Shown here: positions 2,271-63,567 of the stretch, piece after piece
How positions within the stretch are numbered: position 1 is the stretch's first letter
Layout of the letters: each line of letters starts with the position of its first letter
Sequence record: KC801932
Source of the DNA: Escherichia phage Lw1
Direction: 5' to 3' (one strand)
Length of the DNA: 64,000 bases
Notes under the pieces: generated by a model
The model's input: only the letters and a program-made list of their open reading frames with translations
The model's database searches: none
What the model was told of the DNA's origin: nothing
Translations under genes and position numbers: made by a program

Positions 2271-4084
2271 AACAAGAAATTATTATAGGTAACGTGGTTG
2301 ATGACGGCGCTGGCGATTACTTACGCCGTGGTGGTCAAAAAACAAACGCGAACTTTACCGAATTATATGAAAAGCTGGGTGACGGGGAAATCCCTCACCC
2401 AGCGGGTGCGTGGAAAACGCATTCCGCTCCTACATTGAACCCTATTTTTGGTGATTCATGGGCGCTGAATACCAGTAACAACCGTATTACTGTAAACCTC
2501 CCTAAAGGGGGCGTAAGCGATTATAACAAGGTTATTCGTCTGCGTGATGTTTGGAGTAAATGGGCGGTTAACAACGTGCGTATCGTTCCGGCAACGGGAG
2601 ACACCATCAAAGGTTCACCAACTTACAAAGAACTGTACAAAGATTTCATGGATGTTGAACTGGTTTATTGTGCTCCTGGGCGTTGGGAATACGTCGAGAA
2701 CAAACAGGTTGACAAAATAACAACTTCGGATCTGGCTACCGTAGCGAAAGAAACCTATATCGCAACTCAGGGACAGACAGACTTCCCGAATGTGTTCGGT
2801 CCTGGCAACATGTACAACGTTCGTGCTCTCGAAGTCTACTATCGTGGTAACTTGCTGTACATCGACGATAAGAACGGCTTTAATGAAGCAAACAGTGATT
2901 ACGGTTCGCCTGGGGCAACTGCGGGGCAACTCGTAGAACTGGATGGAACCAACATACGCCTTAAACGTCCCTGTAACGCTGGTGACACGCTTCAATTTGT
3001 CACCTATATGGATGGTATAGCAACATGGCGTTCGACGTATGAAGCGCATACAATGCGCGTATACAACACTGGAGACACTGAACTTGTGAGCGTACCTGGT
3101 GAAATCTGGGTTGGCGATCTGGCTAACAAGAAAGAATTCACCACTGCTGAATTTGGTATCAGTTCCCGTGTGTTGATTAACCCGAATTCATTCGAACTGC
3201 TGCTGAACGGTCGTCAGCTTGTAAAAGCAGGTGATGCGGATCTTCCTACGTTTGTTTGTGAAGGTGCGGAAGGTTATGATGAAGATAGCTGTTTGGCTAA
3301 CTCCGGTTTATGGGTTCCGTCTGGACAGGATTACAGTCTAATCTTTGTTAACTCTATTGTGACTGGGATTAAGTTTCATCAGGCACTGGAAACCCGCGAT
3401 GTGGTAACAATCCGTTGGTTCAATAACGATATCGGAACCGTAATGGAATGGGACGGCGTAGGCGGTATTAAAGAGCATACGGATAAACTGTATCTGAATA
3501 ACGAAGACGAATTGACTTTGGTTAATCAGATTGAATATACAGACTACAACAACCCGTCACAAAAAACAATGCGTAAGGTTGCAGATCCTTTCGTTGGTCG
3601 TCTGTTGGATTTGCAAGCGTTTTTCGATGTGATTCACCCTATTGGGACAATTTACGAAAACGCACACAACGACGCAAACCCAGGCGATTATATGGGATTT
3701 GGTATCTGGACACGATATGCAGAAGGGATGTTTATTGCTGGTTGGACTACCGATGCAGCAGATAGCGATTTTGGGCTGAACAATAACGATCTGGATGGTT
3801 CCGGTCAACCTACACACACATCAGGTGGTACTGGTGGTGAACGCGGCTACGAAATCAAACCGATCAACGTTCCACAAATCGAATCTACCGATAAAGTTCT
3901 GATTAAGGACGATAACGGGATCATTATCATTGGTGGTTGTCAGGTTGACCCAGATGCAACAGGACCAGGATACACTAAATACCGTGAGGATGTATTGAAA
4001 GTAAATCAGGGTAATACTACTCCTGATAAGCTGAAAACGCTCCCTCCGTATATTACTGCACATCGCTGGATAAGGGTAGCATAA
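2267..4084 (+). CDS. 10: baseplate wedge protein gp10
   Basis: 605 aa; N-terminus IGNVVDDGAGDYLRRGG and C-terminus YTKYRED...RWIRVA match recalled T4 gp10; start overlaps gp9 stop. Confidence 0.85.
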   Translation: MKQEIIIGNVVDDGAGDYLRRGGQKTNANFTELYEKLGDGEIPHPAGAWKTHSAPTLNPIFGDSWALNTSNNRITVNLPKGGVSDYNKVIRLRDVWSKWAVNNVRIVPATGDTIKGSPTYKELYKDFMDVELVYCAPGRWEYVENKQVDKITTSDLATVAKETYIATQGQTDFPNVFGPGNMYNVRALEVYYRGNLLYIDDKNGFNEANSDYGSPGATAGQLVELDGTNIRLKRPCNAGDTLQFVTYMDGIATWRSTYEAHTMRVYNTGDTELVSVPGEIWVGDLANKKEFTTAEFGISSRVLINPNSFELLLNGRQLVKAGDADLPTFVCEGAEGYDEDSCLANSGLWVPSGQDYSLIFVNSIVTGIKFHQALETRDVVTIRWFNNDIGTVMEWDGVGGIKEHTDKLYLNNEDELTLVNQIEYTDYNNPSQKTMRKVADPFVGRLLDLQAFFDVIHPIGTIYENAHNDANPGDYMGFGIWTRYAEGMFIAGWTTDAADSDFGLNNNDLDGSGQPTHTSGGTGGERGYEIKPINVPQIESTDKVLIKDDNGIIIIGGCQVDPDATGPGYTKYREDVLKVNQGNTTPDKLKTLPPYITAHRWIRVA

Positions 4085-4746
4085 TGACACAATTTATTTC
4101 AAAGACAAGGGAGGGGGCGAAAGTCCCTTCTCGTGAAGCAGACTTTTTGCAATATGAAATGGGTACGAAAGAACCCCTTATTGGTGGTAAACGTACCATC
4201 GGCGGTGCAAACGTTGATCAGCTTCGCAAAGGGATAGACTATCCCAACGTACAATCAGCAATCGATGACCTGTATTCTCTGACTCAACAGATCCCGATTA
4301 ACGGGGTTATCATGATGACAGAAGACAGTCCACCGACCGCTGTTCAGCAGGTAGAAACAATCACGTTTGATGGAACTGTACAAAATCCAGATCCAGACCA
4401 AACGAAAGCAACCGTTCATGTTTATGGCTTTCCGTTTGTATTCGATAACACAACGAACGCCTCTACGGTATGCGAAACAGTATTCAACAAGTTTACTGAA
4501 TTTGTCAACGACGAAAAATATTTCGATCTGGTTACGCGTAAAGGATTGAACGGGGAAATTCTGGAAGTTCGTTTTATTGATGCGGTTCCACATCCGGTAA
4601 CTAACGCAACAGAAAACGGGATCTCTATGGTTGGTGTAATCGACGTACAGGCGCGTTCTGGTTACGGTACGTGGTCGAAACTGGGTGAGATTGATCTTGC
4701 TGTAACTCCACCTGTTCCGATTTATTATTTCAAACGTATTGCGTAA
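4084..4746 (+). CDS. 11: baseplate wedge protein gp11
   Basis: 220 aa; C-terminal GYGTWSKLG...YYFKRIA resembles T4 gp11 C-terminus; synteny. Confidence 0.8.
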   Translation: MTQFISKTREGAKVPSREADFLQYEMGTKEPLIGGKRTIGGANVDQLRKGIDYPNVQSAIDDLYSLTQQIPINGVIMMTEDSPPTAVQQVETITFDGTVQNPDPDQTKATVHVYGFPFVFDNTTNASTVCETVFNKFTEFVNDEKYFDLVTRKGLNGEILEVRFIDAVPHPVTNATENGISMVGVIDVQARSGYGTWSKLGEIDLAVTPPVPIYYFKRIA

Positions 4747-20436: not shown

Positions 20437-22017
20437 ATGTCTAAGAAAAACGAATTGATGGAAAAATGGAACGATCTTCTGGAATCTCAGGAAGGTTTAC
20501 CGGATATCGCTACCAAATCCAAAAAACAACTGGTCGCTGCCATTCTGGAAGCACAGGAAAAAGACGCTGAAACCGATCCGGTTTATCGCGACGAAAAAAT
20601 TGTGGAATCCTTCGGTGGTTTCCTGGCAGAAGCAGAAATTGCTGGCGATCATAACTATGACCCGACCAACATCGCTTCTGGTAAATCCAGCGGTGCTATC
20701 ACCAACATCGGTCCTGCTGTAATCGGTATGGTTCGCCGTGCGATCCCTAACCTGATTGCGTTCGACATTTGCGGTGTTCAGCCTATGACTGGTCCTACTG
20801 GTCAGGTGTTCGCTCTCCGTGCTGTCTACGGTAAAGATCCTCTGGCTGGCGGTACTCCGGCAGATGTTCGTGAAGCATTCCATCCGATGTTTGCCCCGGA
20901 TACCATGTATTCTGGTCAGGGTGCTGCACCAAGCAACGGTTTCGCGAAAATCACTACTGGTACTGCAATTGCAACTGGCGCTATCGTTTACCACTTCTTC
21001 GAAGAAACTGGTATTGCGTACTTCCAGAACGTAACTTCTGGTAACGTAACCGTAACTGGTGCTACTCCGGCAGAACTGGACCTGGCTGTTACCGCAGAGA
21101 ACGAAAAAGGTACTCTGGCTGAAATTTCTCAGGCTATGGCTACCAGTGTAGCAGAACTCCAGGAAAACTTCAACGGTTCCAGTTCTAACCCGTGGAACGA
21201 AATGGCTTTCCGTATCGACAAACAGGTTATCGAAGCCCGTAGCCGTCAACTGAAAGCACAGTATTCCGTTGAACTGGCACAGGATCTCCGCGCTGTTCAC
21301 GGTATGGACGCTGACGCAGAACTGTCTGCAATCCTGGCAACTGAAATCATGCTGGAAATCAACCGCGAAATCGTTGATCTGATCAACTTTACCGCGCAGA
21401 TTGGTAAAACTGGTTTCACCAAGACTGTAGGCTCTAAAGCTGGTGCGTTTGACTTCCAAGATCCGGTAGATATTCGCGGCGCTCGTTGGGCTGGTGAAAG
21501 CTACAAAGCTCTGTTGATTCAGATCGACAAAGAAGCGAACGAAATCGCACGTCAAACAGGCCGTGGTGCTGGTAACTTCATCATCGCTTCCCGTAACGTG
21601 GTTTCCGCTCTGGCTCGTATCGACAGCGGTATTACTCCGGCAGGTCAGGGCTTGCAGAAGTCTCTGAACGTTGACACTACCAAAGCGGTATTCGCTGGTG
21701 TTCTGGGTGGCACTTACAAAGTGTACATCGACCAGTACGCTCGTAGCGATTACTTCACCGTTGGCTTCAAGGGTGATAACGAAATGGATGCTGGTATCTA
21801 CTACGCTCCATACGTTGCGCTTACCCCGCTGCGTGGTTCTGATCCGAAGAACTTCCAGCCAGTAATGGGCTTCAAAACTCGTTACGGTATCGGTATCAAC
21901 CCGTTTGCGAACTCTCGCACTCAGGCTCCGGCAGATCGTATCACCTCCGGTATGATCACTAAAGACATGGTCGGCAAAAACGCATACTTCCGTAAAGTAT
22001 ACGTTAAAGGTCTGTAA
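20437..22017 (+). CDS. 23: major capsid protein gp23
   Basis: 526 aa; long near-identical stretches to T4 gp23 (VRRAIPNLIAFDICGVQPM..PTGQVFALRAVYGKDP, EAEIAGDHNYDPTNIASG). Confidence 0.95.
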   Translation: MSKKNELMEKWNDLLESQEGLPDIATKSKKQLVAAILEAQEKDAETDPVYRDEKIVESFGGFLAEAEIAGDHNYDPTNIASGKSSGAITNIGPAVIGMVRRAIPNLIAFDICGVQPMTGPTGQVFALRAVYGKDPLAGGTPADVREAFHPMFAPDTMYSGQGAAPSNGFAKITTGTAIATGAIVYHFFEETGIAYFQNVTSGNVTVTGATPAELDLAVTAENEKGTLAEISQAMATSVAELQENFNGSSSNPWNEMAFRIDKQVIEARSRQLKAQYSVELAQDLRAVHGMDADAELSAILATEIMLEINREIVDLINFTAQIGKTGFTKTVGSKAGAFDFQDPVDIRGARWAGESYKALLIQIDKEANEIARQTGRGAGNFIIASRNVVSALARIDSGITPAGQGLQKSLNVDTTKAVFAGVLGGTYKVYIDQYARSDYFTVGFKGDNEMDAGIYYAPYVALTPLRGSDPKNFQPVMGFKTRYGIGINPFANSRTQAPADRITSGMITKDMVGKNAYFRKVYVKGL

Positions 22018-22033
22018 GACTTTACACAAGAAA

Positions 22034-22058
22034 GGCAACCTACGGGTTGCCTTTTTTT
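22034..22058 (+). terminator. rho-independent terminator after gene 23
   Basis: GGCAACC-tacg-GGTTGCC followed by TTTTTTT. Confidence 0.7.
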
Positions 22059-22109
22059 ATGGTGTAAATAGATACAGGATAAAAGCCCTCTAATTCAGGA
22101 ACCAAAGAA

Positions 22110-23408
22110 ATGAGTGAAAAACATTACACAATTCACAAGTTGATGCGTCAGTCTACGCTTCCCCCTGGTAAACGCGAAAAGGTTATCAACGAAGCAACTG
22201 GAACGACCGACATCAACGTACAGAACACGCGCCCAGAACTGGTTTCTTTGACTCGCGCTGTTAACAACCTGATCTATCATGAACTGGTTGCTGTACAAGA
22301 AACAAATTTACCCGTAGCAACTCTGTTTGGTGTTCGCTATCGTAACCCTAACGGCGACATGACTTTCTCCAGCGCTGCAACCTATTCAGGCCGCATATCT
22401 GGACGTACAGACATCGACGATATCGATCTGGCTAAGGCATACGTCAAAGGCGATTTATTCAAGCACGATGTCACTGACGTTGTGTATGAGGTCATCGAAC
22501 CTGTAACGCTAAACGCGCTGGATACTGATAAAGACACCGCAATCATGAAAGCTGTGTTCCAAAGTAAAATTCGTTTGGTTAGCGAAGCCGCAGACACTTC
22601 AAAATATGAAACCAGTGAAGATATCGCATCAACCTCTTTCCAGATGGATCGCTGGAACATTCCGGTTCGTTCACGTAAGTTTAAAACTGAAATGACCGTG
22701 GAATTGATGCAGGATCTGGAAGCAAACCAGTTTGAAGCCGATGGGGTAATTGAAGATATCCTGGGTACGGTTGCAAGCGAAGAAGTCAACAAAGATATTA
22801 TTCAGACGCTGATCACCGTTTCCAAACGATATAACGTTGATGGTGTAGTTGTCGATGGTATTTTTGACGGTACAACCGCATACACTGCGAAGGATGCTCC
22901 AGCATTGGGCCGCATACTCTATCAATTAGCGTGTGAAATGGGTCAAGAAATGAATAGAACGACTTCATTTGATGCAACCTACGTCCTCGCTAGTGCTCGC
23001 GTTGTAGGCGTTCTGGCTGCGTCTGGTTGGATGACCGAAACCGACGAACAACACCCGCTGGCAACTGGTAAACTTCAAAACGGTTATTATGTCTATACCG
23101 ACACGAATACACCGTTTGATTATCTGCTTACCGGATGCAAATACGATCTGGGTGATATGGATCACGTAGGTTCTCTGTTCTTCACTCCGTACACCGAAGC
23201 GGATGAAGCAGGTTCAATCAAGGTATCCGTAGATCCTGCATCACTGCAACCGAAAGTTGCTATTCTGATGCGTTACGGTTTATCTGTGAACCCATACACA
23301 ACGGAATCCGACTCTGAACGGTTGACCAAAGGCGATGACTGGTCGAATCTGGCTGGTAAATCCAAACTCAGTCAAATCGTAGGTATTAAATTACCTAAGC
23401 TGGGTTAA
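22110..23408 (+). CDS. 24: capsid vertex protein gp24
   Basis: 432 aa; gp23 paralogue-like fold signatures (YGLSVNPYT near the C-terminus parallels gp23 YGIGINPFA); synteny. Confidence 0.85.
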   Translation: MSEKHYTIHKLMRQSTLPPGKREKVINEATGTTDINVQNTRPELVSLTRAVNNLIYHELVAVQETNLPVATLFGVRYRNPNGDMTFSSAATYSGRISGRTDIDDIDLAKAYVKGDLFKHDVTDVVYEVIEPVTLNALDTDKDTAIMKAVFQSKIRLVSEAADTSKYETSEDIASTSFQMDRWNIPVRSRKFKTEMTVELMQDLEANQFEADGVIEDILGTVASEEVNKDIIQTLITVSKRYNVDGVVVDGIFDGTTAYTAKDAPALGRILYQLACEMGQEMNRTTSFDATYVLASARVVGVLAASGWMTETDEQHPLATGKLQNGYYVYTDTNTPFDYLLTGCKYDLGDMDHVGSLFFTPYTEADEAGSIKVSVDPASLQPKVAILMRYGLSVNPYTTESDSERLTKGDDWSNLAGKSKLSQIVGIKLPKLG

Positions 23409-38938: not shown

Positions 38939-39211
38939 ATGTTTAAAATTTATGGCTATATCCCTTCCGTATACAATTGCGCTCCGTGCCTGAACTCGAA
39001 ACGACTGCTGGACGCAAAGAAACATGAATATGAATTCGTATCTGTTGCTGATTCCAAAGGCGAAGACGGCAAACCGATCCTGAATGAAAAAGTGATTGAC
39101 GAACTCGAAGGTCTTTTGGGTACTCGCAAAATGACCATGCCTCAGATTTTCCACGATGGGAAACACATTGGCGGGTTCGACCAACTTCGTGAGTATGTCC
39201 GCACCCTGTGA
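38939..39211 (+). CDS. nrdC: glutaredoxin/thioredoxin NrdC
   Basis: 90 aa; MFK.YGY...C.YC..AKRLL and TMPQ.F..G.HIGGFDQLREY match recalled T4 NrdC. Confidence 0.8.
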   Translation: MFKIYGYIPSVYNCAPCLNSKRLLDAKKHEYEFVSVADSKGEDGKPILNEKVIDELEGLLGTRKMTMPQIFHDGKHIGGFDQLREYVRTL

Positions 39212-39243
39212 TAAATAATGACACCTTACTGAATGGTGTTATT

Positions 39244-39726
39244 ATGCTGACGAAACGAATTACCAAAAAAGATTACCCAACAATCAAGCAAGCTCTCTTT
39301 GACAAACAAGGGGGCTGCTGTGCTCTCTGTAAACGTCCTCTTGAGGGTGATATAGAGAAACATCACCTTGACCATGACCATGCTTTAGACGGCGAAAACG
39401 CCGGACGTGTGCGCGGGCTTCTGTGTAACCTATGCAACGGTACAGAAGGTATTGTAAAGCACAAATTCAATCGATCCGGTCTGGTTTCCCGTGATGTTTA
39501 TTACATCGCCTGGTTAGAGAATCTGCTTGCATATCTCAAGCAAGACTATTCCGAAAACCGTATTCATGACAAATTCATACCAGATAAGGTAAAATGGTTT
39601 TCAAGACTTACCAAACCTGATATGATTGCCGAAATGGTTTCTATGGGCTTCGAGTACGCCGACAAAGACGAACGCAAAGCCTTAACCGCAAAATATAGAA
39701 AGCAATTAATGAAGGCAACCAAATGA
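39244..39726 (+). CDS. 49: recombination endonuclease VII (gp49)
   Basis: 160 aa from ATG 39244; HLDHDH.L.G..AG.VRGLLCNLCN..EG..KHKFNRSGL and WLENLL.YLK.DY matches recalled T4 gp49; the track ORF starts at GTG 39208. Confidence 0.82.
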   Translation: MLTKRITKKDYPTIKQALFDKQGGCCALCKRPLEGDIEKHHLDHDHALDGENAGRVRGLLCNLCNGTEGIVKHKFNRSGLVSRDVYYIAWLENLLAYLKQDYSENRIHDKFIPDKVKWFSRLTKPDMIAEMVSMGFEYADKDERKALTAKYRKQLMKATK

Positions 39727-62065: not shown

Positions 62066-62145
62066 GGTGAATCTCCTTTGAACGTTTCGTTTCGACAAGG
62101 CCAATATAGCAAAAGCCCCCGACCGAAGTCAAGGGCTTTTTAAAA

Positions 62146-62307
62146 TTACAGGAAGAAACCTGTTCGAACCACTAAATCAATTGGTTTCATCGGGAAGAAA
62201 GGGGAACTTCCATCGATCCCGCATTTATCAAAAATGCCTACAAGCTCATGAGGAATACCGGATTCACGCGCCCATTCCAGATTGTCATCTGTACGCGGCC
62301 CCAACAT
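62146..62307 (-). CDS. small hypothetical protein (53 aa)
   Basis: ATG at 62307; below the track cutoff; immediately downstream of ORF 62322-62474 in another frame. Confidence 0.3.
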   Translation of the reverse strand: MLGPRTDDNLEWARESGIPHELVGIFDKCGIDGSSPFFPMKPIDLVVRTGFFL

Positions 62308-62321
62308 CAGGTTTATTGTGT

Positions 62322-62474
62322 CTACCGCTTTATCTTGTTCTGGGTATTATTACCCCCATTTACGTAGTGACCGTGTGCGGTTTTCAGAATTTCGACCATG
62401 TCGTCGGTTGCTTCAACCAGAAAAAGTCTGGTATTTTCTGGGATTTCCTCAAATATAATCAAAGCGGTTTTCAT
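62322..62474 (-). CDS. small hypothetical protein (50 aa)
   Basis: ATG at 62474 with AAAGG upstream; shorter version of track ORF 62322-62561. Confidence 0.3.
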   Translation of the reverse strand: MKTALIIFEEIPENTRLFLVEATDDMVEILKTAHGHYVNGGNNTQNKIKR

Positions 62475-62579
62475 CACACTTACCTTTATGTTTTTGTTTA
62501 CGTTTTGCTTCTTTAGATACTCGCTTGCGGTCGGCGTGAGTAGAAGCGCGGTTAAAATCATGTTTCTTTACCAGGTTGT

Positions 62580-62816
62580 TTATCGAGGATATAACACGAC
62601 ATGGTTTTGAATACTGACTTCGCCTTGCAATTTAATAATACTCAGACTATCACGTCCTTTAACCATTCTGTACTTTTCAGGAACAACACGGTCAATTTCT
62701 TTTTTAACAGAATCGAGTATTTCGTAGTCATTCACTTCTGACGATACAGGGTTTACAGAAACAGAAGATAGTGCTACACGTTGACGAGAGTCGTAATATG
62801 AAGAAATGATAAACAT
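62580..62816 (-). CDS. hypothetical protein
   Basis: 78 aa; GGAA upstream of the ATG. Confidence 0.4.
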   Translation of the reverse strand: MFIISSYYDSRQRVALSSVSVNPVSSEVNDYEILDSVKKEIDRVVPEKYRMVKGRDSLSIIKLQGEVSIQNHVVLYPR

Positions 62817-63126: not shown

Positions 63127-63567
63127 TTAGTATGGTTGGAATTCAAAGTCAAACAGATCATTTAAAGCACGGTTGTATTCAGTGTAGTTCTCACCATCAC
63201 CGAAACGCATTTGAATCGCGCTTTCCGCTATTGTACCAGTAAGATTCGAGAAACCAAAGAGGTTTTTAATCTTATCGTGTGCAACGAAGTACAGAGAAGC
63301 ACTATCCAGCAACGCAACCATCGCAGACGGTTCGTGCTCGCGGCGTTTAATACGTAACAGGGTACGATTTGCGCCAGTCTTGCGGCGTTGATTCGGTGCT
63401 ACGTAGAAACGAAATACTACTTTGCCCGTTTTATCATCAACTACCAGGTAGAAACCGTGTTCTTTCAGGTCAACCCCTTCGAACTTGGTGAACTCACCGC
63501 GTTTCATGTCACCTATCTTAACAGCATATTTGTGGATGTCAAGCCTTGTCAGAATTCTTTTCGTCAT
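63127..63567 (-). CDS. ndd: nucleoid disruption protein Ndd
   Basis: 146 aa; FYLVVDDKTGK..FRFYVAPNQRRKTG and C-terminal LNDLFDFEFQPY parallel recalled T4 Ndd (FYFLVSKLDGRPF..ARFYVGNQRSKQG ... LADNFKFVLQAY). Confidence 0.7.
   Translation of the reverse strand: MTKRILTRLDIHKYAVKIGDMKRGEFTKFEGVDLKEHGFYLVVDDKTGKVVFRFYVAPNQRRKTGANRTLLRIKRREHEPSAMVALLDSASLYFVAHDKIKNLFGFSNLTGTIAESAIQMRFGDGENYTEYNRALNDLFDFEFQPY

Follow-up and report, generated by a model that had tools for sequence, protein, structure and literature searches.

Two small open reading frames (ORFs) follow each other closely on the minus strand of Escherichia phage Lw1 (sequence record KC801932). They raise the question whether they encode two proteins or are what remains of a single gene and, in the latter case, what broke it. 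We analysed a stretch of 64,000 nucleotides, here called the window, of the 176,227-bp Lw1 genome. Lw1 is an RB16/RB43-type T4-like phage (Pseudotevenvirus, Straboviridae). In DNA, the window was about 80% identical to the closest records of the phage collection, and its plus strand was collinear with the RB16 sequence between about 112 kb and the right end. Sequence and ORF list confirmed both ORFs at the positions where an earlier note on this DNA had placed them, and also their location in different frames, ORF2 occupying the −1 frame relative to ORF1 (Table 1). The spacing of 15 nt given in that note holds as a subtraction of coordinates, whereas the gap between the stop codon of ORF1 and the ATG of ORF2 is itself 14 nt. 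From the comparisons described below, ORF1 and ORF2 almost certainly represent one gene, the Lw1 orthologue of RB16p265 and RB43 ORF287c, with its frame broken at codon 45. The gene belongs to a block of small genes that are transcribed leftward and located between holin t and ndd.

Table 1. Features at and around the disrupted gene (positions in the window).
Feature	Position	Strand	Remarks
ORF1	62474..62322	-	50 aa, MKTALIIF...NKIKR; stop TAG 62324-62322
ORF2	62307..62146	-	53 aa, MLGPRTDD...GFFL; stop TAA 62148-62146
Whole disrupted gene	62146..62474	-	almost certain orthologue of RB16p265 / RB43 ORF287c, PHROG 4658; 329 nt against 330 nt in relatives
Frameshift site	62342..62344	-	CCC against CCCC (ACC CCA, Thr-Pro) in RB16, Dev_CS701 and L007
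G5 run	62353..62357	-	owed to G at 62354, where L007 has T
12 "hidden" codons upstream of the ORF2 ATG	62308..62343	-	in the ORF2 frame, PEQDKAVDTINL, identical to intact P0003/P0005
Hairpin and T-run directly after the gene stop	62103..62140	-	matching position annotated as terminator in phage Miller
DUF7230 ORF (PF23876 / PHROG 1359)	62449..62583	-	44 codons, basic; overlaps the first 26 nt of the gene in another frame

Two reading frames of one gene

Six relatives with an annotation of this region (RB16, RB43, IME-CF2, Dev_CS701, Miller and Matisse) all had one CDS of 330-333 nt at the homologous position. RB16p265 (YP_003858565.1; MKTALIILEE...VVRTGFFL), RB43 ORF287c (AAX78809.1) and IME-CF2 AKR16038.1 share the position of the Lw1 gene, after the DUF7230 ORF and before a terminator/promoter element and a p264-like gene. 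In amino acids, the Lw1 gene was 66-72% identical to RB16 and RB43, 83% to phage GuL6 and 99% to L007, a 50-kb contig from run SRR18491233 in which the gene is intact. While the relatives have a single ORF of 109-110 aa, Lw1 has one of 50 and one of 53 aa, is one base short and carries Gly41 in place of Cys41. When the repaired protein was searched against all six frames of 50,697 phage records, 247 records matched, all with at least 80% query coverage. Intactness was judged on 60 of these 247 rows, sampled evenly down the ranking; all 60 consisted of a single aligned piece and none was split. A protein search yielded 16 clusters, all of them single-frame and, except for two fragmentary entries, with lengths of 109 aa, or of 137-139 aa where an upstream start had been called. 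The earlier note had proposed that the ORFs may be halves of one disrupted gene, to be checked by looking for a longer ORF in relatives, and had named two separate small proteins in relatives as the arrangement that would contradict it. The relatives examined carried the single longer ORF, and the contrary arrangement was not found among the six annotated phages, the 16 clusters and the 60 sampled rows. The comparison indicates that the single-frame state is ancestral.

The two Lw1 ORFs matched the two halves of this protein. In tblastn, residues 1-47 of RB16p265 matched ORF1 (74% identity, 62474-62334) and residues 45-109 matched the frame of ORF2 (66%). When one C was inserted into CCC at 62344-62342, an uninterrupted product of 109 aa resulted, which aligned end to end with PHROG 4658 (E = 2.1e-39, residues 1-109 on profile positions 1-109 of 109). 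Together these matches exclude a chance pairing of the ORFs. ORF1 is made up of native codons 1-44, followed by six out-of-frame codons (QNKIKR) and TAG; ORF2 corresponds to codons 57-109 of the ancestral gene, and its ATG is the conserved internal Met57, invariant in the family alignment. In GenBank, the two are annotated separately, ORF1 as the 3′ part of Lw1_gp272 (a 79-aa extended ORF1, YP_008060792.1) and ORF2 as Lw1_gp271 (YP_008060791.1), both accessions being identified by exact-sequence look-up. This annotation speaks for two independent small genes, adjacent by chance. However, in each relative examined a single protein aligned collinearly with ORF1 and ORF2 as its halves, 12 conserved codons lie outside both ORFs in the frame of ORF2, and a structure model showed one domain spanning both. 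Judged by the sequences, the reading as two genes is effectively refuted, and we leave it almost no chance.

The structure model, obtained with AlphaFold2 for an intact homologue from an alignment of 15 family members, was a confident one (pLDDT 92.7, pTM 0.85), with strands at residues 2-11, 14-22 and 101-108 and helices at 24-33, 45-58 and 63-71. The family protein is predicted to be a single compact α/β domain that the break cuts mid-way. In the model, the break at residue 45 removes helix 2 (45-58). The N-terminal hairpin (2-22) and the C-terminal strand (101-108) come to lie on opposite sides of the break, so that the fragments are unlikely to fold or function alone. A profile search over 1.84 billion representatives returned 241 clusters, almost all of them proteins of 72-148 aa that stand alone. 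Ten of the more distant or longer clusters contained no Pfam domains except one TPR false positive, and no Pfam, PDB or defence-system match was found for the gene product.

Position of the break and start of the gene

Upstream of its ATG, the frame of ORF2 is open only to 62346, where a TAA (62349-62347) closes it, and the two frames can be joined only between 62346 and 62325. The G5 run on the coding strand, to which the earlier note had drawn attention, is indeed present. As site of the shift it was rejected, because this TAA lies just downstream of it; addition or removal of a G led to an immediate stop. It also follows from the TAA that the joining event must lie downstream of the run. 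DNA alignments pointed to the C-run 9 nt further downstream: relatives read ACC CCA GAA where Lw1 reads ACC CAG AA (62344-62342) and is one C short. This was the single gap column within the gene, and blastn placed a one-base gap at about 62342. The window reads ATAC-CCAGAAC against ATACCCCAGAAC in RB16 and Dev_CS701, and RB43 reads ACACTCCAGAAC at this site. The uninterrupted frame of about 109 codons that characterizes the PHROG 4658 group is therefore absent from the Lw1 record, owing to the −1 change at codon 45. With the C-run one base short, the ribosome would read six wrong codons and stop at the TAG of ORF1; the remainder would stay open in the −1 frame, where gene callers would start at the internal Met57 and report a separate ORF of 53 aa.

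The earlier note had spoken of a frameshifted or decaying gene. The one-base gap bears out the frameshift; decay was not observed, as the frame downstream was intact and its amino acids equal to those of the nearest relative. Across the roughly 520-nt locus, L007 and the window differed at four places: two synonymous sites (62376 and 62287), position 62354 (T in L007, G in Lw1) and the C missing in Lw1. The difference at 62354 changes TGT (Cys41) in L007 to GGT (Gly41) in Lw1; Cys is the majority residue at column 41 of the family alignment. Apart from this Gly41, the sole non-synonymous change in the gene, the repaired product was the same as the nearest relative, P0005, and it was 99% identical to P0003. 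Neither extra stops or indels nor an excess of non-synonymous change, as expected for pseudogene decay, were seen downstream of the break: 65 codons (the 12 hidden ones and all 53 of ORF2) matched the nearest relative in amino acids. The absence of decay leaves two readings, a very recent event or a 454 sequencing error. The cluster at 90% identity that holds the Lw1 fragments also holds intact members of 109 and 138 aa from independent Logan assemblies, and L007 is the contig of one of these members.

The start of the gene was assessed from codon-position variation over ten genomes. In the 87 nt before ATG 62474 (62475-62561), variable sites were distributed 2/5/8 over the codon positions of the DUF7230 frame and 5/8/2 over those of the frame extending ORF1. 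This pattern identifies the frame of DUF7230 as the selected one and ATG 62474, the start given in the earlier note, as the true gene start. The 79-aa Lw1_gp272, annotated from ATG 62561, is probably an over-extension. In relatives, many gene callers made the same over-extension, to 137-139 aa (P0003, P0014, P0015, P0021).

The DUF7230 ORF starts with ATA in Lw1 and in L007 (about 3977-4111), and with ATG in each of the eight other relatives. This G-to-A change also converts the stop codon of the upstream gene from TGA into TAA (the ATGA overlap becoming ATAA). With the DUF7230 frame otherwise intact, the ATA is either a real lineage-specific loss of the start codon or a non-canonical coupled start. 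In P0007, a further near-identical relative (145 aa, from a Logan assembly), a frame change leads from the N-terminus of DUF7230 (MNNLVKKHD) into the extension frame, and the 109-aa protein follows. This arrangement points to a change of one base in the T-run of CATGATTTTAAC there.

On the other side of the gene, the loop and 3′ arm of the hairpin contain a strong sigma-70-like promoter for the next gene (TTGACT-18-TATATT, with TG; 10/12 in the promoter scan). This hairpin/promoter element was conserved in RB16, RB43, IME-CF2 and Miller. Dev_CS701, GuL6 and Matisse have an extra ORF of 72-75 aa between the gene and the element. The synteny from ndd through the DUF7230 ORF, the disrupted gene, the terminator/promoter and the p264-like gene to holin t was found conserved in the annotated regions of the six relatives, the gene maps of L007-L010 and the RB16 gene order in the window.

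Recoding, sequencing error or mutation

A split gene might be tolerated if −1 slippage at an A_AAG (62332-62329) restored the full protein, or if the fragments reassembled as a split protein. In E. coli, the tetranucleotide A_AAG is prone to −1 shifts, and these are promoted when the A site holds a slow codon or a stop. Here tRNA-Lys would slip while the ribosome waits on a rare CGG codon and the TAG stop. ORF2 does lie in the −1 frame, and a simulated slip at A_AAG gave an uninterrupted 109-aa product with QNKIK in place of PEQDK. However, the overlap window (62346-62325; TAC CCA GAA CAA GAT AAA GCG GTA in the ORF2 frame) contained the tetranucleotide only and no X_XXY_YYZ heptamer. No stimulatory structure was found 5-9 nt downstream; the minimum-free-energy fold started 17 nt after A_AAG, with z = −1.08, and 30 of 200 shuffles folded as well. 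The G5 run, as a Shine-Dalgarno-like element, lies 20 nt upstream of the slip site, which is too far by the precedent of dnaX. Moreover, GAT AAA GCG GTA are ordinary in-frame codons in the intact gene of L007, so that nothing here evolved for slippage. The Shine-Dalgarno sequence of ORF2 was weak (anti-SD duplex of −3.0 kcal/mol, matched or beaten by 32% of minus-strand ATGs), and no relative had the two-frame layout (60 sampled of 247 records, 16 clusters). We give this tolerated split a very slim chance. Lw1 resembles E. coli dnaX and the phage tail-chaperone genes G/GT in having consecutive 0 and −1 ORFs, with A_AAG in their short overlap, but unlike them it has no slippery heptamer, no stimulatory structure and no conserved two-frame layout, and a programmed frameshift was rejected on these grounds. 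Taken together, functional recoding or a functional split is highly improbable, and the split is one without designed function. A real lesion combined with some full-length protein from unprogrammed −1 slippage at A_AAG, before CGG/TAG, has a slimmer chance still. If true, such leaky slippage would be a natural phenotypic rescue of a fresh frameshift by a fortuitous shift-prone site.

As cause of the missing C, we prefer a 454 homopolymer under-call in the deposited consensus, to which we give about an even chance; it is the choice of a base-calling error over a mutation that we infer here. The Lw1 sequence was obtained by 454 pyrosequencing, with Newbler 2.5.3 as assembler (PMC3861415). In a comparison of 454/Newbler phage assemblies with Sanger references, 1-15 indels per genome were found, 88% of them in homopolymers of at least 4 bases (Henn et al. 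2010, PMC2816706). The Lw1 case is like these errors in platform, in assembler and in being a single-base deletion in a run of at least 4, the run that we take to be C4 having been read as C3. The lesion splits a small gene, where curators would be least likely to notice. The indel was absent from near-identical independent sequences. An exact-product look-up found the 53-aa and 79-aa products on one contig alone, that of Lw1 itself. A pattern scan of viral contigs for the C3 or C4 version gave only the IMG/VR copy of Lw1 as carrier of the split allele, and a pattern scan of metagenome contigs found none. Neither read data nor, in later literature, a re-sequencing of Lw1 were found. If the C is an artefact of this kind, the phage would make the intact protein, and Lw1_gp271 and Lw1_gp272 would be annotation artefacts.

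Alternatively, the C was truly lost from the Lw1 stock by recent slippage, a reading to which we give slightly less than an even chance and under which the gene would be a young pseudogene of a dispensable accessory gene. The product would then be truncated to 50 aa, and the 53-aa C-terminal fragment would arise through inefficient re-initiation only. Unlike in the 454 benchmark (PMC2816706), the rest of the window showed no other such error, despite 918 homopolymers of at least 4 nt, 293 of them of at least 5 nt. When 75 RB16 CDSs were compared with the window by tblastn, three had no match (two homing endonucleases and p246), and none of the other approximately 72 RB16-homologous genes showed a frame change; the remaining multi-frame matches were paralogue cross-matches, and gp55.2 was an intact 103-aa ORF. 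The sole disruption among about 73 such genes suggests that the consensus is generally accurate, and consensus under-calls are less common at 4 bases than in longer homopolymers. The frequency of frameshifts over the window was also used to gauge assembly quality; with the disrupted gene alone affected, it does not tell an artefact from a mutation. Counterparts of the RB16 homing endonucleases p215 and p243 and of the small RB16 ORF p246 are missing from the window (around 22014-22110 and 39208-39723). The paper describing Lw1 reports few mobile endonucleases in this phage, which agrees with the absence of p215 and p243.

L007 adds a comparison for the behavior of homopolymers. Over a block of 3.4 kb it was about 99% identical to Lw1, with 40 substitutions and two indels of one base, each in a homopolymer; Lw1 is the aberrant one at the disrupted gene and L007 at ndd. 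There (2745-3365 in L007; about 63210 within ndd, 63127-63567, in the window), L007 has an extra A in an A-run, which truncates its Ndd homologue (ending ...AIQNAF), and Lw1 agrees with RB16. This would attest real homopolymer frameshifts in accessory genes of the lineage, unless the base in L007 is itself an assembly error. The N-terminal 100 residues of the L007 Ndd homologue are unrelated to Lw1 Ndd, and the latter is 100% identical to RB16 Ndd. In favor of a mutation, the Gly in place of the mostly conserved Cys41, 9 nt upstream of the break, could reflect relaxed selection on a dead gene, and the loss of helix 45-58 from the single domain of the model would be expected to abolish function. 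The authors of bioRxiv 10.1101/2020.01.15.907352 moreover call the Lw1 population attenuated and mutation-prone. Against it, the amino acids past the break show no decay at all, the lesion is in kind and context exactly a typical 454 error, and the split allele was absent from the independent samples scanned. All other genomes checked had the gene intact, which implies that it is under purifying selection.

Consequences for annotation and for the gene family

Under either cause, an under-call or a mutation, the split is an ordinary one-base frameshift in a conserved phage gene. The entries Lw1_gp271 (UniProt M9UYA1) and Lw1_gp272 (M9UVQ9) should become a single one, flagged as a frameshifted RB16p265 orthologue with its start at ATG 62474 and not at 62561. 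Two spurious small "proteins" have by now spread in databases, and M9UYA1 already has a predicted structure in BFVD. Regardless of the split, the family is one of a conserved phage protein with a confident fold, without a PDB match and without a Pfam family. If the lesion is real, Lw1 would be a natural knockout, the gene being intact in all other carriers checked, and would show that the gene is dispensable on E. coli BL21(DE3).
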